In this document: positions 25,772 through 37,293 of the stretch, one piece after another
Layout of the letters: each line of letters begins with the position of its first letter
Position numbering within the stretch: the first letter of the stretch is position 1
Assembly: GCA_963782055.1 (NCBI GenBank)
Contig: CAWAIF010000003.1
Span: forward strand, 3,392,001-3,456,000
Source: an uncultured delta proteobacterium
Lineage (GTDB): Bacteria > Myxococcota_A > Polyangia > Polyangiales > Polyangiaceae
Reading direction: 5' to 3'
Length of the DNA: 64,000 nucleotides
Translations under genes and position numbers: made by a program
Notes under the pieces: model-generated
Databases searched by the model: none
What the model saw: the letters and a program-made list of their open reading frames with translations, nothing else
What the model was told of the DNA's origin: nothing

Positions 25772-27262
25772 CTACCCGGCGGGCAAGCCGTGGTAGTAAG
25801 GCGAAGCTTCTCCGGGCTGATAGCTCAGTTGGTAGAGCTGCGGACTTTTAATCCGTAGGTCGCGGGTTCGAGTCCCGCTCGGCCCACCACGGGAAACCCG
25901 CCCCGGAGTCGTCGCGGAGGCCAGGGCGGAAGAGGGCGGAGCGCCCCCCATTGGCACGCCCATTGGCACGGGCCTCCGGCCCCCGGTGCCGCCCTTCGGG
26001 TGAAGTTCGGGGATCGCTTCGTCCAGCGGAGCGAACCATCCGAGGCCGAGCTCCGCGGCGGTCCGGCTCGCGCGCTTGTAGCGGTAGATCATCACCGACG
26101 ACTTGTGCCCGGTGCGGTCGGTCACCCACGCTTCCGTGCGCCCGCTGGCGAGGGCGAGGGTCACGAACGAGCCGCGCAGGTCGTGGGCACGAAGGAGCAG
26201 GCGCCCGGCCTTCGGCTTCGTGAGCTCCGGCCGGTCGACGCCGGCCAGGGCGAGCCCTTCGCGTAGGTGGTGCGCGTAGTCCCCACGATCGCCCAGGAGC
26301 GCCTTGGGGAAGATGGCTGGCACCTTCGTAGCCTTCGCCCCGCGGAGCTTCTTCCAGGCGCCCAGGGCGCGCACCACGTCCTCGCCCAGCGCCCACGAGC
26401 GCGGGTCCTCGGTCTTGTTGGTGTCGAGCCGCACGACGCCGCGCACAAGGTCCACGTCCGCCCACGTCAGGCCGAGAGCTTCGCCGGTGCGCATGCCCTC
26501 CCTGGCCAGGAAGCCGAAGAAGAGGCGGCGGGCTAGAGGCACCTCGCGGCACTGCATGAGGGCGAGGTCCTCGCTCGGGTAGACGTAGGACTTCGCCGCG
26601 TCGCTCCGGTTCTTCGGGAGCCAGCCTTGGGGGATCGGGATGTCCTGCCGGAGCCGAAGCGGGTAGCGCCCGTACACCAGCAGCTTGCGGATCGCCTGCG
26701 CGTACTGGCGCCGCGCCGCCGCCGTGCGCGTCGTCTCGGGCAGGTGTCCCATGAGGTGATCGCAGTCGTCCAGGGTGACGCTGGCCACCGGGCGCGCGCC
26801 GAAGGTGGTCCCGTCCGGCATGCGCACCTTGTTCAGCCAGGCGAAGATCCGCGCATCGTCCTTGCTGCTCTTCTTCACGCGCACGTGGTCCGGGTAGGAC
26901 TTCGCGAGCTCGCCGGAGCTCCACGCGGCGGCGAGCTCCTCCACGGTCATCCCGTCCTTGCGGAGCCCGCCGGCGCCGGAGAGCCCGGGCGCCTTGCCGG
27001 CGAGGATCACGGCGGCCGCCTTCCGGATGGCGGCGAAGCCCTCCGCGTCGGCGGCCGCCGCTTCCTGGATCAGCCTCGGGAGCACCCCCGTGTGGCCCGC
27101 GTCCCGGAGGCGGTCGACGAGTGCGCCGATCGCGTCCTTCCGCTTGAGGGCCTCCGCCTCCGTCTTGCACGACGTCAGGAGGGCGCCCTTGCGCTGCTTC
27201 CCGGAGCCGATGACGTACCGGACGAAGTACCCGCCGGGCGTGGTGGTGAGGGTGCCGGACAT
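25772..27262 (-). CDS. int: Tyrosine recombinase/integrase; C-terminus reads through attL antisense to the tRNA
   Basis: GMRTGEALGLTWADVD (R), NKT (K), HDLR (HxxR), TGHKSSVMIYRY (H, Y). Confidence 0.93.
   Translation of the reverse strand: MSGTLTTTPGGYFVRYVIGSGKQRKGALLTSCKTEAEALKRKDAIGALVDRLRDAGHTGVLPRLIQEAAAADAEGFAAIRKAAAVILAGKAPGLSGAGGLRKDGMTVEELAAAWSSGELAKSYPDHVRVKKSSKDDARIFAWLNKVRMPDGTTFGARPVASVTLDDCDHLMGHLPETTRTAAARRQYAQAIRKLLVYGRYPLRLRQDIPIPQGWLPKNRSDAAKSYVYPSEDLALMQCREVPLARRLFFGFLAREGMRTGEALGLTWADVDLVRGVVRLDTNKTEDPRSWALGEDVVRALGAWKKLRGAKATKVPAIFPKALLGDRGDYAHHLREGLALAGVDRPELTKPKAGRLLLRAHDLRGSFVTLALASGRTEAWVTDRTGHKSSVMIYRYKRASRTAAELGLGWFAPLDEAIPELHPKGGTGGRRPVPMGVPMGGAPPSSALASATTPGRVSRGGPSGTRTRDLRIKSPQLYQLSYQPGEASPYYHGLPAG
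25814..25889 (+). tRNA. tRNA-Lys (anticodon TTT)
   Basis: 76-nt cloverleaf: GGGCTGA acceptor, D-arm TAGCTCAGTTGGTAGAGC, anticodon loop CTTTTAA, GGTTCGAGTCC T-loop, encoded CCA. Confidence 0.97.
25845..25891 (+). repeat. attL core (47 bp, 3' half of tRNA-Lys)
   Basis: CTTTTAATCCGTAGGTCGCGGGTTCGAGTCCCGCTCGGCCCACCACG identical to 36074-36120. Confidence 0.95.
25948..25970. repeat. Putative integrase arm-type sites, left end
   Basis: Tandem CCATTGGCACG x2; reverse-complement tandem pair at 35962-35983. Confidence 0.75.
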
Positions 27263-27297
27263 GCCGAAAGACTACTCCGCCTCGGCCTCGCGGGCGT

Positions 27298-27783
27298 TCA
27301 CTTGCGGACCCGGCGCTTGGCGGGCTTCGCCGTGGGCTCCACGGCGATAGAGAGGGACGCGACGGCGTTGCGGACGAGCATCCGAAGCACCGCGCTCGTC
27401 GGCATCTCGTAGTGACGCGCGAGCGCCTCCAAGCGCGCCACGTCCACGTCACCCACACGCATCCGCACCACCTGCCCCTTGGTCTCCAATTCGGTCTGCA
27501 TCGGCTTCACCCTGATCCTTCCTGACGGGTCCGCTTCGATTGTAGCCACAACGGGGCGACTGTCAACGGCCGAGCCCATGAGTGCCGCCACGTCCACACC
27601 CAACACCGCGGCGACCCTGGCCAGCCATTCCACGGTGGGCGTGGCCTCGGCCCTCGTCACCCGGTAGATCTGCGCGCTGCCCACGTCGGCCGCCACGGAC
27701 AGTTGGTAGAGGGACAGCCCCCGCTCGGCCGCAACGGCCTTGATGTTCGCTGCGATGCGTCGGCGGAGCTCCCGGTCGGTCAT
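27298..27783 (-). CDS. XRE-HTH regulator in frame with a ribbon-helix-helix domain (RHH possibly also made alone from 27510/27501)
   Basis: RIAANIKAVAAERGLSLYQLS...IYRVTRAEATPTVEWLARVAAVLGV (XRE); QVVRMRVGDVDVARLEALARHYEMPTSAVLRMLV (RHH/CopG-like). Confidence 0.75.
   Translation of the reverse strand: MTDRELRRRIAANIKAVAAERGLSLYQLSVAADVGSAQIYRVTRAEATPTVEWLARVAAVLGVDVAALMGSAVDSRPVVATIEADPSGRIRVKPMQTELETKGQVVRMRVGDVDVARLEALARHYEMPTSAVLRMLVRNAVASLSIAVEPTAKPAKRRVRK
27539..27566 (-). promoter_or_regulatory. sigma70-type promoter inside the HTH ORF, facing RHH-int
   Basis: TTGACA-N16-TACAAT on minus strand; overlapped by TGTAGCCACA (27541-27550); AGGAAGGA RBS before GTG 27510. Confidence 0.65.
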
Positions 27784-27805
27784 CCCCCGATGGTACCGGG
27801 GAGGC

Positions 27806-27848
27806 TTGCGTTTCTCTCGATCGCCTCTTACGATCGCGTGTAGCTACA
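27806..27848 (+). promoter_or_regulatory. sigma70-type promoter plus palindromic operator for the rightward operon
   Basis: TTGCGT-N17-TACGAT (27806-27834), then perfect palindrome TGTAGCTACA (27839-27848); AAGGAGA RBS before ATG 27909. Confidence 0.6.
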
Positions 27849-27908
27849 GAAACGAAACGGCCCGGCGAGGCGCAAACCTCCCGGGCCAGGCCACCAAGGA
27901 GATTACCC

Positions 27909-28241
27909 ATGGCGACGACAAGCAATGTGGACGTAGTGCGAGCGCTCGGCAAGCTGGACGACGCGATCATCGACGGCAAGCGGCTCCTGCGGGCCGAACG
28001 CATCGGGCAGCTACGAGCCCTCGCGTACGAGGCGGTGGGCATGGCTCGCCACGACACGCGCACCGGCGAGGGCGTAGGCCCCGACGATGCGGACGTGGTG
28101 TTTTTGATGTACGGCCCCGAAGGGCTGGACATGGTGGAGCGCGACGTGTTCATCAGGCACGCCAGGGCGGCGCTGGCGCCCCCGGTGCCCCTGTCCCCCT
28201 GCGACGTGGCCCGCGTCGCCCTGCGCCGGGTGCCGCGATGA
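27909..28241 (+). CDS. Element hypothetical protein
   Basis: 110-aa ORF with strong RBS; ATGA-coupled to the next ORF. Confidence 0.7.
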   Translation: MATTSNVDVVRALGKLDDAIIDGKRLLRAERIGQLRALAYEAVGMARHDTRTGEGVGPDDADVVFLMYGPEGLDMVERDVFIRHARAALAPPVPLSPCDVARVALRRVPR

Positions 28242-28474
28242 TCGGCTACGAGGCGGCGGGCTCGGTCTGCGGATCATGTGGCCACCACCACCGGACGATC
28301 GCCACGGCGTACGCCTGCGCGGACGCGCACGGGCGGGCCATCGGGCGCGCCTACCCGAGCACGTTCCCCACGCGGGCGTACAGCGATCGGGTCGTCTGCC
28401 GTCTAGACGGCGAGCCGCTGTCGGAAGCGGAGCAGGACGAGCTTGTGCAGGCGGCCGAAGCCGCGGACGAGTAG
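28238..28474 (+). CDS. Small putative metal-binding protein
   Basis: 78 aa; CGSCGHHHRT....AC motif; ATGA overlap. Confidence 0.65.
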   Translation: MIGYEAAGSVCGSCGHHHRTIATAYACADAHGRAIGRAYPSTFPTRAYSDRVVCRLDGEPLSEAEQDELVQAAEAADE

Positions 28475-28481
28475 CACCGCA

Positions 28482-28832
28482 TCACCTCGCAGTACGAGAG
28501 GGCTCCGCGGCTTCGGCTGCGGGGCCCTTCGCTTTGGCCCGCAGCTCCCGCACCTCTTGAAGTAGCTCCGTGCACCGCGCCTGCGTGCGCGTGAGGGCGT
28601 CGGCCACCGCGGACCGCTCCCCGGCGAGCTTGCCGATCGCTTCGTACACCAGCGCGTCAAGCATCTCGGCGCGAAGCTCCGCGGTCCAGTCGCGCGCGTC
28701 CTGCGCGATGCGGAGCTCCCCGTACTGGCGCCGCCCGGTCGCGAGCCGATCCGCAATCATGCAGAGTACACGCACCTCGTCCGGGCCCAGCGTCGCCACG
28801 ATGGCGCCCAGGCGATCCGCAGGGCTCACCAC
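28482..28832 (-). CDS. Phage-type hypothetical protein
   Basis: GRRQYGEL...RDW..E...EMLDALVY helical motif plus C-terminal coiled coil. Confidence 0.6.
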   Translation of the reverse strand: MVSPADRLGAIVATLGPDEVRVLCMIADRLATGRRQYGELRIAQDARDWTAELRAEMLDALVYEAIGKLAGERSAVADALTRTQARCTELLQEVRELRAKAKGPAAEAAEPSRTAR

Positions 28833-29068
28833 GGGGACTCGTCCTCGCGCTGCCTCTGGAAGTAGTCCGGCGAGTGCGGCTTCGCGATGTCATGAGCCGC
28901 GGCAAGGCGCCCGGCCTCGTCCAGCCGCAGCGTGGGCATGTCGCGCGGGCGCTCGGGGCTTGGCGCGCCCGCGTCGCGCGGGACGATCGTCCCGTCATCG
29001 ATCAACGCGGCGCGGAGCTCGCGCGCGAAGGCCCGCCGTGCGCTGGAGTGCGTCGTCAGATCACCCAT
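28826..29068 (-). CDS. Element hypothetical protein
   Basis: 80-aa ORF overlapping its neighbours in the minus-strand chain. Confidence 0.5.
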   Translation of the reverse strand: MGDLTTHSSARRAFARELRAALIDDGTIVPRDAGAPSPERPRDMPTLRLDEAGRLAAAHDIAKPHSPDYFQRQREDESPW

Positions 29069-29361
29069 GCTTTGTCTCCGCGCATGCGCACCACGACCCG
29101 AGCGGACTGGACGAGGCCTCGGTCGTGAACCGTGACGAACCGGCCGTGCCCCAGCCGAACTGTGGCGGTGCCGTCGTCGCAGTGCACGACCGTGCCGTCG
29201 AGCGCAGAAAGCGGCGGGTGGGCGCGCCGCAGAAAAGGAGGCCTTCCCCTCTGCGGCGCCGAGAGGGGAGCCAGCCCTCGCGCGCGGGAGGTGGATGGCC
29301 TCCCGCGGCCCGAGGCGAGGCGGCGGGATGGCGCCGCCGCATCGCCTACTACATCCTTCAC
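29056..29361 (-). CDS. Element hypothetical protein (frame uncertain)
   Basis: GTGA coupling at 29358-29361; beta-rich C-terminal half. Confidence 0.35.
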   Translation of the reverse strand: MKDVVGDAAAPSRRLASGRGRPSTSRARGLAPLSAPQRGRPPFLRRAHPPLSALDGTVVHCDDGTATVRLGHGRFVTVHDRGLVQSARVVVRMRGDKAWVI

Positions 29362-29777
29362 GGCGCCCGCCACAGATCGGGCGCGGCCTCTTCCGGTGCG
29401 GGGCGGACCATGGTGGCCACCTCGTACTTCGCGATCGAGGTTGTGATCGGGAGCATGATCAGCGCCCACCGATGCGTCCAGGGAAGGGGGCCGAAGTCTG
29501 GAGCGTCCCGGGCGATGATCGCTTCGACGTTCCCGCGCATCGTGCGCCCGGCGATCTCCGCGCCCCCGTCGTCGTCGCCCGGCCACATGACCACCGTGTC
29601 ATCCACCCGCGAGAGGAAGGCATCGCGGTCCGCGAAGGCGACATGGCGCGCACGGAAGACCATGTGCCCGCCGACCGTCGCGCCGCCGAGGGCTACGAAG
29701 TGATCGGTGGGGCAGTCGGCGAGCCCGGCGCGCAGCGCATCGATCAGCGCGTCGACGGTGGCGTCGCCGGTGCTCAC
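29358..29777 (-). CDS. Element hypothetical protein
   Basis: 139-aa ORF, GTGA-coupled at both ends. Confidence 0.6.
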   Translation of the reverse strand: MSTGDATVDALIDALRAGLADCPTDHFVALGGATVGGHMVFRARHVAFADRDAFLSRVDDTVVMWPGDDDGGAEIAGRTMRGNVEAIIARDAPDFGPLPWTHRWALIMLPITTSIAKYEVATMVRPAPEEAAPDLWRAP

Positions 29778-30124
29778 GACTCACCCGCGGCGAGGGCGAG
29801 ACGCGCGACCTTCGCCGCGTCTTCGGCCGACTGCGCCCGCACGCTGGCCAGGTGTCGACGCGCCTGCTCCGGCGTCATGTTCAGCTCGTATCGCCCGTGG
29901 ATGAAGGTCACGCCGGACCCCTGCGCGGACATGCCCATGCGCGCGGCGATGCGCGCGGCTTCGGGGCTCTTCGTCGAAGGCTTGCCGACTCCGCGAGCGA
30001 GGATCTGCCGGGCCTGCTCCCGCGTGATCGGGCCCAGCTCGTAGCGCCCGCCCTTGAAGCTCGCGACTGCGGGCGCCTCGCCGTGGAAGACGCCCATCCT
30101 GAGGTTGATCTCGTTCTTTGTCAT
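29774..30124 (-). CDS. Element hypothetical protein with an internal repeat
   Basis: 116 aa; GRYEL..(I/M)T.EQAR..LA occurs twice; ATGA/GTGA coupling. Confidence 0.65.
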   Translation of the reverse strand: MTKNEINLRMGVFHGEAPAVASFKGGRYELGPITREQARQILARGVGKPSTKSPEAARIAARMGMSAQGSGVTFIHGRYELNMTPEQARRHLASVRAQSAEDAAKVARLALAAGES

Positions 30125-30933
30125 CTCAGCAACTCCCTCTCCGCGCTGGTGCGCTTGAGATCCAAGGCCGCAACCTCGGAGTCATCCGCCGGCGCCTGGC
30201 GCCTCCCGCGCGGCGGCGCGGGGGACGCGGGGGCGCGTGCAGCCTTTTCCGCATCGATCTGCGCGGCGCGCCTCTTCGCGATGAGCGCGGCCTCAGCGTC
30301 GCGGGCCGCGGCGTACCCATCGACGCGGCACACGCGCGAGCGCAGCGACTCTCCGCGAGCGCGCACGATCTCGGGGTCGATCGAAGCGTGGAGCCGAACG
30401 ACTGCGCGCTCCACGGCTCGCTCGAGCTCCGCCACGGAGTCGCCGAACTCGAGCGGACCGATGTCGCCGCGACCGACGCGGGCGAGCAAGCTCTCCGCCA
30501 GCGGGCCCGCGTGGTCGGATTCGTACTGCGTGAACGCCGGCGACCCGTGCATCGCGACCCGCTCGTCGCCGTGCGCCACCGCTGCGATCAGGTGCCAGGA
30601 CGAGAATTCGCCGCCGAGCTCCTCGCGAGCGCGCACGATGACCGCGCCGGCGGTCCGGATGACCTCCGCCCAGCTCGTACGCTTGCCGTCGCACGTGGCG
30701 ACGGCCTCGCGCCAGTCGGAGACGAGCGCGAGGATCTCCGCTTCCTGCCGCGCGCGGGCGGCGGCGGCGGCGGCCTCGGCGTCTTTGATCCGGGCGGAGT
30801 GATTGCTCGTCATCGCGAGCCGCGCACCCCGGTGATCGTGGTCGAGTGCGGCGAGCTCGTCCAGGCACGAGCGGGTGAGGGCGTCGAGCGCGCGAGCGCG
30901 TTCGGCGTGCGAGGTGTGGGTCACGTCGGTCAT
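30121..30933 (-). CDS. Element hypothetical helical or coiled-coil protein
   Basis: 270 aa; ATGA coupling at both ends. Confidence 0.6.
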   Translation of the reverse strand: MTDVTHTSHAERARALDALTRSCLDELAALDHDHRGARLAMTSNHSARIKDAEAAAAAARARQEAEILALVSDWREAVATCDGKRTSWAEVIRTAGAVIVRAREELGGEFSSWHLIAAVAHGDERVAMHGSPAFTQYESDHAGPLAESLLARVGRGDIGPLEFGDSVAELERAVERAVVRLHASIDPEIVRARGESLRSRVCRVDGYAAARDAEAALIAKRRAAQIDAEKAARAPASPAPPRGRRQAPADDSEVAALDLKRTSAERELLR

Positions 30934-31181
30934 GCGGACACCCTGCTCCCGTCGGAGTCTACAGTTGTGGAATTCGTCGGAGGCGCGAGCCACGACGCGG
31001 GCGCGATGGCGTACACCTCGGCGAGGCGAACGGCGACGCGGAGCCCGGGCAGTCGCGTCCCCGCGAGAAGGGAGTAGAGGGTCGCGCGCTTGATCCGTGT
31101 GTGGTGCAGGACGAGCGTCAAGCCGTCGCGCGCGACCACGGCGGCGAGCGCCTCACGGCCTGCACTTCGCGCGGGGGTCAC
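30930..31181 (-). CDS. Small XRE/Cro-like HTH protein
   Basis: TRIKRATLYSLLAGTRLPGLRVAVRLAEVYAIAPASW. Confidence 0.65.
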   Translation of the reverse strand: MTPARSAGREALAAVVARDGLTLVLHHTRIKRATLYSLLAGTRLPGLRVAVRLAEVYAIAPASWLAPPTNSTTVDSDGSRVSA

Positions 31182-31342
31182 GGCTCGTTGCCCTCCGGCG
31201 CGGGCGCCGGCGCGCGCGAGGGCTCCGCGGCGGGGCGCGGGGCTCCGCACGTGGGGCACCGCCCCTTCTTGCGGGCGAGCTCCGCCAGTAGGCGCCTCGC
31301 GAGCGACGCCGCCGGCGAGCTCGGGGGGTCGGGCGCCCTCAC
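31178..31342 (-). CDS. Small protein with a CPTC zinc-knuckle motif
   Basis: GTG at 31342 overlaps TGA 31339-31341; LARRLLAELARKKGRCPTCG. Confidence 0.4.
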   Translation of the reverse strand: MRAPDPPSSPAASLARRLLAELARKKGRCPTCGAPRPAAEPSRAPAPAPEGNEP

Positions 31343-31927
31343 GGCTTCATGCCCTCCAGCGCCGCAGCAACGGCCCCCATCGCCTCCGGGTAAGGCTCGA
31401 GCGCATCGCCGATCGCGACCTGGATCCTCGCAAACGTGGGCGTGCTCAAGAATCCGCCGGTCGAGCGCGGCGCCGTCGATCTTGTCCAGGATGGCGAGCG
31501 ATGCGCAGCACGAAGACACGAGCCGCGCCTTGGCGGAGGGCGGGAGGCCCGCGGCTCCCTTCGCGCGCAGCTCACCAAGCAAACCCGCGATCGTCTGCCG
31601 GAGCTCGCGCGCCACCGCGTCGACGTCGAGCTCGTCGCCCGCGTCGCCCCCGGCGGCGACGGGATGGTCACCCTCCGAGGCGCGTACCGGCGGGGCCTGG
31701 ACGGCCCCAGGAAGCGCCGGGCCGCACGCCTCGTCCCAGGACGCTACCGGGATGGCGTAAGCGGCCTCCAGGCGCGCCCTGGCAGCCGCGCCGGGGCGGG
31801 AGCGCCCCTTTACCCAGTGGTGTGCCGAGGTGACGGAAGCGCCGGCCGCCGTCGCAATCTCCTCCAGGGTGAGGCCAAGCCGGGAGAGCAGATCGGCGCC
31901 GGGGCTCATCTTCGCGTGTCGGGTCAT
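31339..31927 (-). pseudogene. XRE-HTH protein with helical C-terminus, apparent +1 frameshift near 31441
   Basis: N-terminal HTH (LGLTLEEIATAAGASVTSAHHWVKGRSRPG); removing one base gives ...RRILEHPTFARIQVAIGDALEPYPEAMGAVAAALEGMKP* and restores GTGA coupling. Confidence 0.55.
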
Positions 31928-32060
31928 GTAGTTTCACCTGTGAAGGTTTCAGATTTTCGGGGCGGAAAATTACAAGCAGAGCACTTGTCGGTGTTGCGCT
32001 CCCTATGACTGTTGAAGGGGGGTCATGGTCACCAGGGCGGGCCACGGCGGCGCAGTCGAA

Positions 32061-32186
32061 GCGTGGGCGTGTGGGCAACGTGGGTACCCACGCCGTGTGC
32101 CCACCCGTCCACGCCCCAAGCGTGGGCGTGGGCACGCAGGGGGGGTATGGGGGGGAGTTGCCCACGCCCACGCTCTTGCCCACGGG
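32061..32186. other. Putative replication origin (iteron-like GTGGGC/GCCCAC cluster)
   Basis: Many GTGGG(C) units in both orientations; 16-bp inverted repeat 32119-32134 / 32159-32174; palindrome CGTGGGTACCCACG; directly downstream of the primase-helicase. Confidence 0.65.
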
Positions 32187-32191
32187 CAGGG

Positions 32192-34288
32192 TCAGAGACA
32201 CCTTGTCACCTCGTCGGGCAGGCGCGTCCGGTCGATGGTCAACGCCGTGCTGCCCTTGTGCTTGGCCTGGAGCAGCGCCGGGCCGAGGCAGGCCACCGCC
32301 GGTGCCCACCGCCGAGAGTTGTCCGCCACGGTGGCGAGCCGCGCCTCCCGGACGCTGCAGCCGTCGTGAGCCAGGACGTACGCGGCGACGGCGCCGGCGT
32401 CGGCGGTGATCTTCGCGACCTTCGCCTGATCCTTCCGGGCCGCCTTCTCCTCGCGTTCGGCGGCGCGCCGGTCCTGCGCCTCGGCCCACGCCGACACGAT
32501 GCGACCGCCGCGGTCCTCCGGCTCCCGGTAGGAGAAACCGGTGAAGCGCAAGGGCGACCAGGACGCGCCGGTCGCGCGGCCCTTCGCGGTCGCGAAGATG
32601 ACGTCCACCCCCTGCCCTTCGACGAAGGTCTCCGACACCTTGAGCAGCATCGAAACGCTGTCCGCGCTGAACTCGATCTCGCCGGATTCCTTGGCCGTGC
32701 CGACCAGCACGTCCGGGTTGCGCAGGCGGCGGCGGATCGGCGCGCCGTGCTCGTCGGCGTCGAAGTCGAGCCCGGCCGAGGTGATCAGCCTGTCGGTGTC
32801 GTACTGCGCACGCCCGATGCTGGAGACGACCAGCACCACCGCGCCGAGGCGCACCGCGACGTCACGGGCGAAGTACGCGGCCCGCCCGATACGCTCCCGC
32901 AGGTCGAGCGCCCGACCGTCGCGGGTCTCCTCCCCGATGATCTGCAAGAAGTCGAGCACGACCAGGAACGGACGCGAGCCAGGCCCTTTTGCCTCCGGGT
33001 ACTTCGCGCGCATCGCCTCGGCCACGCGGCCGAGCTCCGACACGGGCCACCCCTGCGGCCTGGAGAAAACGAAGTGCAGCGGGAGCCCTTCGAGGCGAGG
33101 CGCGACGGCGCGGATGCTCTCCAGGTACTTCGGCCCGGCCTGCCCGGTGTAGACCTTCGACCAGGGCACGCGGGCTTCCTCCCCGAGCAGCCGTAGGGCG
33201 ACCTGGAGCTCCTCCAGCTCCAGGGTGATGTACGCGGCGGGGAAGCCTGCGCGCGCCCCGTGTAGCGCGACCTGGAGCCCGAGCGCGGTCTTTCCAAGAC
33301 CGGTCCCGGCGTTCAGGAAGTGCACGCCCGACCAGAGTCCGCCGCCGAAGTGCGGGAGCAGGCTCGGCCACGGGAGTGGGATCGGCTTCTCGTCGCCGTT
33401 GGCCCGGCGTTCCGCGCGGACCAGCGCGTCCGGGATGATCTCCTCCAGCGTGACCAGCGCCGGCGGCGGTGCCTCGTCCAGGTACGCGCGCCCGGTCGGG
33501 GGGTGCGGCTCGCACTCGTCGGTCTCGCCCTCCAGCCCGACGAGCTGCTCGAGCGTGCCGCCGGCGGCGAGCAGGTCGGAGACGTCCTTGTGTGGCGAGG
33601 GGCACTCGAGCACCGACACCGAAAGGGCCGCGCCATCGAGCGAGGCGGCCACCTGGCGCGCATGGTCGCGCCCCGGCGTGTCGGCGTCGGCGATGATGAT
33701 GACGGCGCGTCCTGCGAGCACCTGGCGAGCGTGTGTGGCAACGAAGCGCCATTTGCCCGCGCCCATGGCGGCAGTCGTCGCGGTGTAGCCCTTGGCGGCG
33801 AGCGCGTCGGCGTCCTTCTCGCCTTCGACGATGTACACCGGCCGGTCGCCGTCATCCTCGAGCAGCTCGGGAAGGCGGTAGAGCACGCGCTCCACGTCGC
33901 CCAGCGAATGGATCCAACCCCCGGCGCCGTCCGGCTTGCGCTGGCGGAAGTCCTTCGGCTCGTAGCGCACGGCCTGGTAGAGCAACTCGCCGGCCGCGTT
34001 GCGGTAGTCGTACGTCTTGACAATCTGCCGAATCTGCGAAACCCGAGCGGCACCATGCGACGTGCCGCACTTGCAGCTCCCGTGCATCCGATGGGCGTAG
34101 GTCGGCGGCGTCGCGTTGCTCGCGTCGAGGCTGCCCGCGTGCTCGTCGCTTGTACAATGCACGTAGTCACCATCGGCCGACGTGAAGCCGGCGCAGCGCT
34201 TGCCCTTTCCGCGCGGGTCGCCTTCGGCGCCGTCGCAGATCGGGCAACGGTTCGTCTTCGTGTGCCGCAGCCTTGCCGGAACGCTCAT
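32192..34288 (-). CDS. Primase-helicase (Zn-binding, TOPRIM and DnaB-like SF4 helicase domains)
   Basis: CPIC...C...C N-terminus; IVEGEKDADAL and IADADTPG (TOPRIM); AGTGLGKT Walker A, VVLDFLQII, KESGEIEFSAD (DnaB-type). Confidence 0.88.
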   Translation of the reverse strand: MSVPARLRHTKTNRCPICDGAEGDPRGKGKRCAGFTSADGDYVHCTSDEHAGSLDASNATPPTYAHRMHGSCKCGTSHGAARVSQIRQIVKTYDYRNAAGELLYQAVRYEPKDFRQRKPDGAGGWIHSLGDVERVLYRLPELLEDDGDRPVYIVEGEKDADALAAKGYTATTAAMGAGKWRFVATHARQVLAGRAVIIIADADTPGRDHARQVAASLDGAALSVSVLECPSPHKDVSDLLAAGGTLEQLVGLEGETDECEPHPPTGRAYLDEAPPPALVTLEEIIPDALVRAERRANGDEKPIPLPWPSLLPHFGGGLWSGVHFLNAGTGLGKTALGLQVALHGARAGFPAAYITLELEELQVALRLLGEEARVPWSKVYTGQAGPKYLESIRAVAPRLEGLPLHFVFSRPQGWPVSELGRVAEAMRAKYPEAKGPGSRPFLVVLDFLQIIGEETRDGRALDLRERIGRAAYFARDVAVRLGAVVLVVSSIGRAQYDTDRLITSAGLDFDADEHGAPIRRRLRNPDVLVGTAKESGEIEFSADSVSMLLKVSETFVEGQGVDVIFATAKGRATGASWSPLRFTGFSYREPEDRGGRIVSAWAEAQDRRAAEREEKAARKDQAKVAKITADAGAVAAYVLAHDGCSVREARLATVADNSRRWAPAVACLGPALLQAKHKGSTALTIDRTRLPDEVTRCL

Positions 34289-34473
34289 GCGGCCCCCGCG
34301 CACGGCACGCACAGCACGACGACGGGCCGGTCCTCGGCGTCGACCACAAGCGCCCGGTGCGCAGGGCACAGGCGCTCGCCGCAGGCGGCGCACCGGCCAC
34401 CCTGCAGTAGCGCCAGGCGGGCCACGGGCGCGCGGAGAGAGGCAGCATGGGCACGGCGGGCGGCGCGGTTCAT
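34285..34473 (-). CDS. Small Zn-finger protein (degenerate endonuclease VII/HNH-like)
   Basis: LQGGRCAACG...LVVD...LCVPC; ATGA coupling at both ends. Confidence 0.6.
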   Translation of the reverse strand: MNRAARRAHAASLRAPVARLALLQGGRCAACGERLCPAHRALVVDAEDRPVVVLCVPCAGAA

Positions 34474-34808
34474 CGGCTCGCCCCCAGGCGGCGGAGGGCG
34501 CGCTCTACGTCGGCCTCGCCCTCCACGGGCGCCACCACCCGCGGGCCGCGGGCGCGGAGCCACGCGTCGACGGAGGCGCGTGGGGCGAGCCACCGGCGGC
34601 CGACGCGGACCGCGCCGCCGATCTCCCCTCGCCGGCAAAGGCTGTAGAGTACACGTTTCGACGCGGGCACCTCTCGCGCCACGTCGACGAGCTCGTCGCG
34701 CGGGGACAGGAGGGCGGCGACGCGCGGAGCGAGGGCGGCGGCGAGCGCGTCGAGTGCGACGGCGGCCGGGTCGGACGCGGGCGGCGGAGGAGCGGCGCGG
34801 AGGCTCAT
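34470..34808 (-). CDS. Excisionase-like winged-HTH protein
   Basis: SKRVLYSLCRRGEIGGAVRVGRRWLAPRASVDAWL (Xis/HTH_17 pattern). Confidence 0.75.
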   Translation of the reverse strand: MSLRAAPPPPASDPAAVALDALAAALAPRVAALLSPRDELVDVAREVPASKRVLYSLCRRGEIGGAVRVGRRWLAPRASVDAWLRARGPRVVAPVEGEADVERALRRLGASR

Positions 34809-35026
34809 CTCGCCCTCGCGAGGTGGATCACCTGCGCCCCCGGTCGGCGCGCGATGGCGGCGGCCGCCGTCTCGATCCAGTAGCGGGTCGTCGGTCGCGC
34901 GTCCCCGGTGAGGTAGGAGCGCAGCGTGGACGGGACGACGGCGAGCTCGCGGGCGGCGGCGGCGGTGCCCAGGCGCCGGGCGAGCTGCACGACGTCGCGG
35001 GCGGGCTCGTAGGTGGTGGCATGCAT
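34805..35026 (-). CDS. Small Cro-like HTH protein
   Basis: LGTAAAARELAVVPSTLRSYLTG; ATGA coupling to the xis-like gene. Confidence 0.65.
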   Translation of the reverse strand: MHATTYEPARDVVQLARRLGTAAAARELAVVPSTLRSYLTGDARPTTRYWIETAAAAIARRPGAQVIHLARAR

Positions 35027-35060
35027 CGACGCGGAGCATGCATCCGCGTACCCACGTAGG

Positions 35061-35089
35061 GGGGGCGTCCGCGGAGGACGCCCCCTTTT
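35061..35089. terminator. GC-rich hairpin inside the element
   Basis: GGGGGCGTCC-gcgga-GGACGCCCCC-TTTT, immediately after the stop of 35088..35753. Confidence 0.55.
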
Positions 35090-35753
35090 ACTCGGCGTTT
35101 TTGCGCATCTTCTGGACGCGCCGCTTCGCGTCTTCCGCCTTCACCACGACGCCAATCTCCCTGCAGACTTGCTCGAGCACGTTCCACTTGCTCAGTCCGG
35201 GGCCGGGGACGAAGGACTCCACCAGCGCGTCAGCCGACTTCAAGGTGAGCTTCTCCGCGTGCTCCGGGTAGTGCTCCGCGAACTCCAGGCGCAGGATCCG
35301 CCCGAAGGATCCGAGTTGCTGCGCAGCGCTCAAGAGGGCGGCCGCTCCCTCGCTCGGATGGTCGCTGCACTTCGCCTCGGCGGCCAGGGCTAGCGCGTGC
35401 TCCGCACACACGGCGAGCCGCGCGGCGATCGCGGTGGGGCTGTCGCCGGCCTCGGTGAACAATCGGTTCGCGGCCGCTACGACTTCGAGGGCCTCCTCCG
35501 CGTAGTCCTCGCCGCGCTCGCCCAGCGCCCGGCGGACGTAGGCGATCCTCGCCTCCAGCATGTCGAGTTGCTCCCTCGCCAGCGATGCGGTGCGGCCCCT
35601 GCTCCTCTCGTAGTTCTGCACGCGTTCCACCAGGCGCGCAGCGCGAGCCGGCGGCGGCGCGCGCGCGATCTCGTCCCGGAGCCGCTGCGCTGTCTGCTCG
35701 CGCGGTGCCCCTGTCGCGTTGCCGACATCCGCCTTCTTCGCTACTCTTCGCAT
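35088..35753 (-). CDS. Element hypothetical helical protein
   Basis: 221-aa ORF upstream of the replication module. Confidence 0.6.
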   Translation of the reverse strand: MRRVAKKADVGNATGAPREQTAQRLRDEIARAPPPARAARLVERVQNYERSRGRTASLAREQLDMLEARIAYVRRALGERGEDYAEEALEVVAAANRLFTEAGDSPTAIAARLAVCAEHALALAAEAKCSDHPSEGAAALLSAAQQLGSFGRILRLEFAEHYPEHAEKLTLKSADALVESFVPGPGLSKWNVLEQVCREIGVVVKAEDAKRRVQKMRKNAE

Positions 35754-35820
35754 GTCGAACCTCGTCCGTTCGTCCTGCGCCAGGGGGCTTGCCGGCCCGC
35801 CTGGCGCTTCCTTTTGGAGC

Positions 35821-36073
35821 CTACGTCTTCCGTCGCGCGTCAGCCAACACGGCCACCGTGGCCCGCTTCGTGCTCCGCCGCACTTCGATCAAGGCGAGGG
35901 CGCGCGCGTCGTCGCCCTCGTCCAGGGCGAGCTTGATCGCCACCACGAGGGCGTCGTCTGCCGTGCCAATGGCGTGCCAATGGGGGTCCCGAGGCGTCCC
36001 CACCGTCCCGACGGTAGGCGAAAAAGCCCGAGTAAACGGCACTTCGGCACCTGCCGGTACACCCTCACTTCGG
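35821..36073 (-). other. Displaced 3' segment of the integrase gene (83 codons plus stop), in frame with int after excision
   Basis: Open frame from the attR core to TAG 35821, in the same phase that int uses across attL. Confidence 0.75.
35962..35983. repeat. Putative integrase arm-type sites, right end
   Basis: CGTGCCAATGG x2, reverse complement of the left-end repeats. Confidence 0.75.
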
Positions 36074-36120
36074 CTTTTAATCCGTAGGTCGCGGGTTCGA
36101 GTCCCGCTCGGCCCACCACG
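36074..36120 (+). repeat. attR core (47-bp duplicate of the tRNA-Lys 3' half)
   Basis: Identical to 25845-25891; the tRNA 5' half is absent here. Confidence 0.95.
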
Positions 36121-36837: not shown

Positions 36838-37293
36838 ATGAAGAGGCTCTTTTCGACGGTCGTTGTGGCGATGGTGGTGGTCGGCGTCACGGCGACGGCC
36901 TGCAAGCACGAGGATGACACCGCGGCGGCGGCCACGCCGAGCGCCAGCGCGAGCGCGTACCCCGGGTACCCGCCGCCGCAGCAGGGCTACCCGCCGCAGC
37001 AGGGGCAGTACCCGCAGCAGGGCTACCCGCCGCCCCAGCAGGGCTACCCGCCGCAGCAGGGTACGGTGGCGCCCCCGCCCACCGCCACCGCCCCCGCGCC
37101 CTCCGCGACGATGGCCGTCCCCAACCAGATGGCCTTCCCGTGCTCCAGCGACGCCAACTGTGGCCTCGCGCACTGCAACACCCAGTACGGCAAGTGCGCG
37201 TTCCCCTGCGTCAACTCCGACGTGGACTGCATCTCCGGCGCGCAGTGCAACACCGCGACCGGCCTCTGCGTCCCGAAGGTCGGCGGCCAGTAG
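36838..37293 (+). CDS. Lipoprotein with GYPPQQ repeats and Cys-rich C-terminus
   Basis: GGAGG RBS, ATAC lipobox, tandem PPQQGY repeats, seven C-terminal Cys. Confidence 0.8.
   Translation: MKRLFSTVVVAMVVVGVTATACKHEDDTAAAATPSASASAYPGYPPPQQGYPPQQGQYPQQGYPPPQQGYPPQQGTVAPPPTATAPAPSATMAVPNQMAFPCSSDANCGLAHCNTQYGKCAFPCVNSDVDCISGAQCNTATGLCVPKVGGQ

Follow-up and report, generated by a model that had tools for sequence, protein, structure and literature searches.

A capsid-less element in a Polyangiaceae tRNA-Lys gene is probably a phage satellite with a likely small terminase gene

Introduction

How does a mobile element of about ten kilobases travel when it has genes for integration and replication, and no recognisable genes for a virion? 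The question is raised by a stretch of 64,000 nucleotides, below called the window, from an uncultured member of the Polyangiaceae (assembly GCA_963782055.1, contig CAWAIF010000003.1, positions 3,392,001 to 3,456,000), in which such an element is inserted in a tRNA-Lys gene. An initial annotation had described it as a satellite that recalls phage-inducible chromosomal islands (PICIs) or P4, possibly of a poorly described myxobacterial family. The answer that we consider probable, with considerable room for doubt, is an integrated, capsid-less, PICI-like phage satellite, which carries a likely small terminase subunit (TerS) of the helper's type with a site upstream of it, and whose DNA would be packaged by temperate phages of 40-44 kb from the host family. 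Published work is cited for what the available parts of each paper state.

Results

The element and its boundaries

A complete tRNA-Lys(TTT) gene, found by ARAGORN at 25814-25889 on the plus strand, is the integration target. Its last 47 nt recur on the same strand as a direct repeat of 100% identity: the tRNA-side copy of the attachment (att) core lies at 25845-25891, inside the integrase reading frame, and the distal copy, a 3' fragment of the tRNA, at 36074-36120. The spacing of the repeats, 10,229 nt, is the unit length of the element. The GC content is that of the host, and a blastn search of the 7.58-Mb genome with the element finds no further copy of the 47-nt repeat. Inside the ends a 10-mer occurs in two copies at 25948-25969 (plus strand) and as an inverted pair at 35963-35983 (minus strand); four of its five genome-wide copies fall within the element, and they are putative arm-type sites of the integrase.

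Of 19 called open reading frames (ORFs), 17 are on the minus strand. Among these is a tyrosine integrase (25772-27262; PF00589 in Pfam, E 4e-13), a 698-aa protein (32192-34288) in which a Zn-binding/TOPRIM primase is fused to a DnaB-type helicase of superfamily 4 (SF4), with TOPRIM and DnaB_C in one ORF, and an Xis/AlpA-like helix-turn-helix (HTH) protein (34470-34808; HTH_17, E 2e-8) that is likely an excisionase or activator. Catalytic-type motifs are present in integrase, primase and helicase. A 73-aa Cro-like HTH protein is encoded at 34805-35026, and XRE-type HTH domains are also matched among the ORFs. The initial annotation had listed these genes, nearly all on one strand, between intact att repeats, and in this it was right; only the Cro-like label is weak (HTH_31, E 0.014).

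It had also seen no capsid, portal, large terminase (TerL), tail or conjugation genes, and neither do we. Scanned with Pfam and PHROGs, the 19 called ORFs (18 in one of the scans) give no match to families of capsid, portal, TerL, tail or relaxase. The same holds for 101 six-frame stop-to-stop frames, which are all 103 with at least 60 aa except the integrase and the primase-helicase. Local profiles built from the head genes of relatives have no match in the element's frames, and PADLOC gives weak HTH matches only.

A likely terminase small subunit and its upstream motif

A gene that probably bears on packaging lies at 31927-31339 on the minus strand. It encodes an XRE-HTH domain, a helical hairpin and conserved C-terminal helices, and continues to 31178 in another frame. 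The same genome holds a sister element of 10,420 nt at tRNA-Gly(CCC) (L001:2640-13080, that is G000:C3:3576639-3587079), in which the gene is intact. Compared with the 194-aa gene of the sister, the 249-aa HTH ORF at 31927-31178 has one uncompensated extra base at 31451, and the family profile (A1) matches it in two frames. The element is thus intact in its att ends, integrase and replicase, as first described, and frameshifted in this gene.

The family profile matches 59 of 383 genomes of the host family, partly through the HTH alone. Of the 84 profile matches, 20 neighbourhoods were fetched, chosen by score and long contigs. In 12 of the 20, TerL, portal and major head genes follow it, and because of this position we read it as a likely small terminase of a family without annotation. 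No other ORF stands between the gene and TerL in eight of these 12 prophages, one or two small ORFs do in the other four, and a head protease is matched in nine. The TerL alignment of the prophages matches solved terminases. All five prophage loci that were extended are att-bounded and 39.7-43.9 kb long; one is in the host's genus. Of the remaining eight neighbourhoods, one has TerL without an adjoining portal, three have no clear assignment, and four are small att-bounded elements (8.0-16.0 kb) in which neither TerL nor portal nor capsid is matched.

The C-terminal 100 residues of the sister protein have 42 matches (clusters) among 1.84 billion representatives, mostly proteins of 170-250 aa with an N-terminal HTH. 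For the C-terminal part of the family the nearest named Atlas clusters are T5 TerS, DUF1804 and Mu gp27 (0.85-0.86, to be taken as leads only). Five of 34 family members match DUF1804, which we take to be a TerS-like family. The element's gene itself has no match to a terminase profile. A predicted complex of the C-terminal part of a prophage TerS with its own TerL scored 0.17 against a mark of 0.32, which gives no answer either way. No terminase profile represents this family, so a search with terminase markers would probably miss it.

About 80 nt upstream of the start lies a C-run / AACAGT / G-run motif (32001-32022, minus strand). With the core written as RACAGT, it is common to the small elements and the 40-44-kb prophages: the strict motif is found in 12 of 29 upstream regions against 0.9% of random windows, and the core in 17 of 29 against 3.5%. 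When a matrix built on 21 sites outside this genome is run over its 7.58 Mb, the sister's site ranks first and the element's (32022-32001) fifth. We regard the motif as a candidate pac/cos site or late promoter.

The second of these roles belongs to another account, namely that the element is a satellite whose HTH protein regulates late genes or interferes with the helper, the motif being a late promoter or operator and packaging using some other site. The N-terminal domain is indeed of XRE/Cro type, the motif is at promoter distance from the start (about 60-150 nt), and the small ORFs before TerL in four of the 12 prophages would suit a regulator. However, in the other eight nothing intervenes, and the nearest named clusters are small-terminase families. 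In addition, among 33 small elements described below, six have this TerS type and ten have another TerS-like gene together with TerL. The two never occur in one element, as expected of alternative fillers of one packaging slot. We consider the regulator unlikely, and continue with a small terminase.

An inverted GTGGGC/GCCCAC repeat array follows at 32062-32184. It had been called origin-like, and is real; it is common to the sister up to 32147, although the replicase of the sister is unrelated. A packaging or regulatory role would for this reason fit as well as an origin, and we list the array as a candidate origin or TerS/HTH binding array.

The integrase frame crosses the attachment site

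The integrase reads through the att core and the antisense of the tRNA, so that it has 496 aa in the integrated state and 556 aa on the reconstructed circle. Its C-terminus on the circle is a promoterless frame at the far end (35821-36073, minus strand) that ends in a conserved helix-pair tail. Integrase frames cross att in 18 of 19 elements and in four of four more; the count excludes two broken remnants (L048, L069), in which the frame ends short of att. Open frames of 84 codons are frequent here (49%). Because open frames are this cheap, the evidence for an attachment site of the circle (attP) inside the integrase gene is the conserved tail, one motif of which is common to ten relatives. 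Joined integrase-plus-tail ORFs are present in five of 12 IMG/VR loci, four of them on contigs of 43-55 kb.

The element's own tail does not score against the profile from the ten relatives, nor above chance against a wider profile (92 of 200 shuffles as high), and a protein-database search with it gives no match. A direct search finds its relatives in 17 of 380 family genomes, which makes it a second tail subfamily. Among 14 loci of these relatives ten end in a like-sized tail, two have it in frame behind an integrase motif, and five have a tRNA T-arm motif just upstream (6.9% background). Excision would thus be predicted to swap a conserved helical tail into the integrase.

The same arrangement is known from Myxococcus phage Mx8 (and Mx9), where the recombination site lies within the int coding sequence, integration gives the gene a new 3' end, and the two forms of the Mx8 integrase differ in recombination activity (PMC6070905). 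Here, too, attP is inside int and integration replaces the C-terminus. However, Mx8 is absent among the phage matches of the element's integrase, its integrase C-terminus does not score against the tail profile, and here the design sits on a satellite-sized element whose relatives use many tRNA targets.

The closest relative of the integrase (67%; L039:935-16162) also uses this tRNA-Lys(TTT) core, but is turned the other way round, and the full tRNA stands at its far end. Two further loci, L044 and L056, show the same flip.

A sister element and an exchangeable replicase

The sister and the element share a middle block of 4.3 kb at 91% identity, a patchwork of stretches at 100% and at 78-89%. 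In the changes between the two known copies of the late ORFs, third positions lead only slightly. The sister integrase is a different one, with a frame of its own that spans att and measures 456 aa in the integrated form and 501 aa on the circle. Its replicase is a PrimPol with an AAA helicase, against the TOPRIM-SF4 fusion here; other relatives have D5, VirE-like and DnaC-type modules, and the primase and helicase halves of the element match different relatives. Judged from these comparisons the replicase is an exchangeable module. The SF4 type, which the initial annotation took as a mark of the family, is not a family trait, since the sister and other relatives carry unrelated replicases.

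This bears on a second account, in which the element is a decaying deletion remnant of a 40-44-kb prophage that has lost its structural operon. The TerS-like gene, a second HTH and the integrase clade all occur in full prophages, the TerS-like gene is frameshifted, and the genome has no detected helper. The initial annotation had named close homologs that are full prophages as the sign of such a remnant, and for the TerS-like gene and the integrase clade this is what is found. Against a remnant, however, nearly equal sizes (10,229 and 10,420) and the same module are found within one genome in two elements whose integrases and replicases are unrelated to each other. Both att ends, the arm repeats, integrase and replicase are intact, the ORFs downstream of the TerS-like gene have no match in five full prophages, and relatives without a capsid occur as free circles. 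The slot order is found again in different genera, and a recurring layout argues against a one-off deletion. A remnant is in our view quite unlikely. At some depth the element likely does descend from a prophage, since integrase and TerS are common to prophages.

Small relatives and free circles

Relatives of the integrase are found in 18 of 36 genomes of the family and in two of 24 others, and the named ones are mostly Polyangiaceae and Sorangium records. In all, 33 att-closed or circular elements of 5.4-17.6 kb were compared, none of which (0/33) matches helper-class portal or capsid profiles; some of the profiles used on them were built from these same elements. Genes of the packaging slot are present in 16 of the 33. 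A PHROG scan covered 21 loci and 114 of their 245 longer proteins; it matches TerL, tape measure, head protease and a few tail or decoration families, and no portal or major capsid. Three small elements (L049, L052, L065) have a head-maturation protease and helical proteins without a TerL, portal or capsid match, and may be a third type of hijack cassette.

Two relatives are free circles. Rctr16k (KX853514, L199) is a circle of 16.7 kb with an integrase 48% identical to that of the element, recovered at depth 219 from pooled virus fractions that had been filtered and DNase-treated (PMC5099504). It has the same slot order: att, an ORF of about 220 aa, Cro-like, Xis-like, replicase, packaging genes, helical protein, a ribbon-helix-helix (RHH)-like gene and int. 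It differs in having another TerS-like gene, TerL, head protease and tape measure, and an integrase that stops before att. Among 17 of its 25 genes that were scanned there is no capsid or portal match. It was published as a virus genome, in a paper whose main text does not contain the word satellite (PMC5099504). It looks like an attP-joined, capsid-less member of the element's family, and if the reading of the element is right, this entry filed as a virus would itself be a satellite. The second circle is an IMG/VR contig of 15.0 kb (L335) with a terminal repeat of 127 nt and an attP-spanning integrase. Direct IMG/VR scans with the element's integrase or with one TerS-like protein gave no match, and a scan with the primase gave relatives at the TOPRIM level only.

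A third account does without a phage: an integrative replicon, independent of helpers, whose DNA travels naked, inside vesicles or mobilised in trans through an origin of transfer (oriT), its phage-like genes being passengers. It would explain why the element has its own replicase and integrase and why no helper was found in the genome, and some relatives, such as L053, indeed carry only defence or cargo genes. However, relaxase and type IV secretion genes are not matched, packaging-slot genes are present in about half of the small elements, and Rctr16k is abundant in the virus-particle fraction. We give this account an outside chance at best, and return to a phage-packaged satellite.

Search for a helper

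The best helper candidate is a 43.4-kb prophage in tRNA-Ala of a genome of the same genus, which has the TerS-like family and a full head module (L241 with L343-L345, G005:C31). Prophages of this class use tRNA-Leu, -Phe, -Thr, -Ala and tmRNA. In two of five full prophages the integrase is 40-41% identical to that of the element.

In the genome itself, the 58-kb island in tRNA-Gly(GCC) was rejected as a helper: it carries restriction-modification genes and insertion sequence (IS) cargo, assigned by eye, and has no structural match. A phrog_2 match (E 7e-4, a 941-aa frame) was not taken as TerL. Other islands lie in tRNA-Val(GAC) (11.5 kb, ATPase/nuclease-like cargo) and tRNA-Pro(TGG) (8.7 kb), both from the L003-L008 set. 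A 10-kb relic in tRNA-Thr(CGT) (L002, G000:C3:4707949-4717961) has a broken integrase that belongs to this clade and, at its other end, a tail frame; its cargo is a Ser/Thr kinase, a sigma-54 activator, an HNH gene and an IS. At the start of contig C3 an integrase reads into tRNA-Ser.

Other genes of the element

The remaining features complete the map, and except where stated they are on the minus strand. Next to the integrase, at 27298-27783, an XRE-HTH is fused to a 67-aa unit (ATG at 27501) that was labelled RHH-like by eye; many relatives have a small RHH-like gene before int. A near-consensus sigma-70-like promoter (11/12) at 27566-27539 points at the RHH-like part and int. As it lies inside the fused ORF, these two may be expressed separately. 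Two ORFs of 110 and 78 aa on the plus strand (27909-28474) have no family match and are identical in the sister. They are followed by five coupled ORFs without assigned function (28482-30124; 116, 80, 101, 139 and 116 aa), common to the sister, the first of which has homologues in three other elements.

At 30121-30933 a 270-aa, all-helical protein is encoded, and in this slot relatives have Ala/Glu/Arg-rich helical proteins of 176-421 aa, without a sequence link among them or to the 270-aa protein. The latter has two sequence matches only, both in this genome. Its single-sequence model has a predicted local distance difference test (pLDDT) score of 59, no Foldseek match at E<=0.001 and no usable Atlas match. 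A role as capsid-interference factor, like Sid or Psu, is speculative.

Between this gene and the TerS-like gene lies an 83-aa HTH protein (30930-31181) related to the N-terminus of the TerS-like family. Beyond the primase-helicase there is a 62-aa Cys-rich ORF (34285-34473), and the first gene after the distal att is a 221-aa ORF (35088-35753) without homologue among the fetched loci, in a slot that holds an ORF of 190-260 aa in many relatives. Just outside the element, at 36838-37293, a host ORF encodes a lipoprotein-like product with Gly-Tyr-Pro-Pro-Gln repeats and a Cys-rich C-terminus.

Discussion

The proposed life cycle takes its start from what can be read in the DNA: att repeats, an integrase frame through them, a replicase, no detected head, tail or relaxase genes, a frameshift and a sister. 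Infection by the helper would switch on the Xis/AlpA-like and Cro-like genes. Excision would join the integrase to its helical tail and, as in Mx8, alter its activity, and the primase-helicase would amplify the excised circle. TerS would then bind at or near the conserved upstream motif and recruit the TerL of the helper; the frameshifted copy would need the protein of the sister or of the helper for this. The DNA would be packaged in full-size heads as concatemers of about four units (4 x 10.2 = 40.9 kb) or, more speculatively, in small heads shaped by the 270-aa helical protein. Integration would restore the tRNA-Lys.

Several findings weigh against this reading. The mobility of the element is a prediction from sequence, and packaging, induction and excision were not observed. 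Among public sequencing runs, one DNA run and no RNA run is listed with a share of it; that run contains a few 100%-identical pieces of the element, with a depth of 2-4, and the attP joint is absent from it. The genome, 97% complete, yielded no helper prophage. The TerS-like gene is frameshifted, and its identity rests on gene position and weak family matches: there is no match to solved TerS proteins, and a structure search with a model of pLDDT 88 (best Z 7.6) reaches no fold beyond XRE HTHs and generic hairpins. The motif pattern was picked after viewing the sequences, the element's site included, and is absent upstream of 12 of 29 relatives. Both free circles are of the type with TerS and TerL, unlike the TerS-only type of the element, and the integrase clade and the TerS-like gene are also at home in full prophages. 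Finally, a fetch limit of 20 kb allowed closure only for elements below about 19 kb and thereby skews the observed sizes; in one set 20 of 33 integrase loci stayed open, and the count of prophages with this integrase is for that reason too low.

Among known systems the likeness is greatest to PICIs of the type with terS (Staphylococcus aureus pathogenicity islands): about 10 kb, att-bounded, with an integrase, an HTH regulator, a fused primase-helicase and a likely terS, and without detected structural or lysis genes. By our reading, four of the five core functions in the PICI model of SatelliteFinder (10.1101/2022.09.14.508007) are likely represented. Integrase, att repeats and a primase-replicase module are there, and phage structural or lytic genes are not detected. 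For the regulator (alpA, merR, stl) there are HTH_17/excisionase and XRE matches and none to the Phage_AlpA or MerR models; for capsid morphogenesis there is no profile match, only the 270-aa helical protein with its low-confidence model.

The gene order is different. In PICIs int and repressor point one way and xis-pri-rep-ori-terS is transcribed away from int, their att sites are never used by prophages and they have genes exclusive to them, according to the available text (PMC6092414). Here transcription of the xis-rep-terS block runs from the far att towards int, a divergent rpr/xis pair next to int is lacking, attP lies inside int, and the integrase clade and TerS-like gene are also those of prophages. 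The int-regulator-xis-pri/rep-ori order of the initial annotation is therefore not that of the element, and because of the gene order we do not file it as a PICI.

Other satellites are less similar. Core genes of P4-like satellites are Psu, Sid, Delta and Ash, and the P4 alpha helicase is of the SF3/D5 type. The element shares tRNA target, size and a primase-helicase fusion with P4, but none of these four genes is matched in the frames scanned with Pfam and PHROG, and its helicase is of SF4/DnaB type; the P4 part of the original comparison has no support. PICMIs are also small and capsid-less and package concatemers, which the size ratio of 1:4 would allow here, but they sit next to fis in Vibrionaceae and have three core genes (PMC10803314). 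EPIPs, again small and capsid-less, have terS and a tape measure, as some relatives here do, but use a serine integrase and are found in mycobacteria (PMC12822802). From capsid-forming PICIs the element differs in having no capsid, portal or TerL match, and from integrative and conjugative or mobilizable elements (ICE/IME) in having no match to relaxase or conjugation genes.

We found no description of myxobacterial phage satellites in the literature outside subscription journals. A 2026 survey of 3,229 myxobacterial genomes has plasmids, prophages, IS and 10 ICE/IME, and no satellites are listed in its available parts (10.64898/2026.09.14.751636). The element is thus probably a phage parasite of a kind not found described for myxobacteria. 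Of the proposal of a poorly described satellite family, recurrent small att-bounded relatives, free circles, and a likely TerS and motif in common with prophages are now in favour, while its original reasons, gene order and SF4 replicase, have failed.

A bolder version is conceivable, and we hold it to be doubtful. It supposes an undescribed Polyangiaceae satellite family with one chassis, an integrase completed by excision and a swappable replicase, onto which interchangeable hijack cassettes are set: a helper-type TerS with the shared packaging site, or an own TerS and TerL with or without tape measure or head protease. The two satellites of this genome would then trade their packaging module by recombination, and the tRNA-Lys copy would ride on the TerS of the tRNA-Gly sister, one satellite parasitising another.

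What is new here is a probable type of satellite with TerS only, for which a class of helper can be predicted. If the reading is true, that helper class would be the 40-44-kb prophages, which the family carries in complete genomes of cultured size. A small-terminase family without annotation and a candidate packaging site would come with it, and packaging could then be tested directly. For Sorangium-type producers the element would offer a possible tool for transduction and integration.

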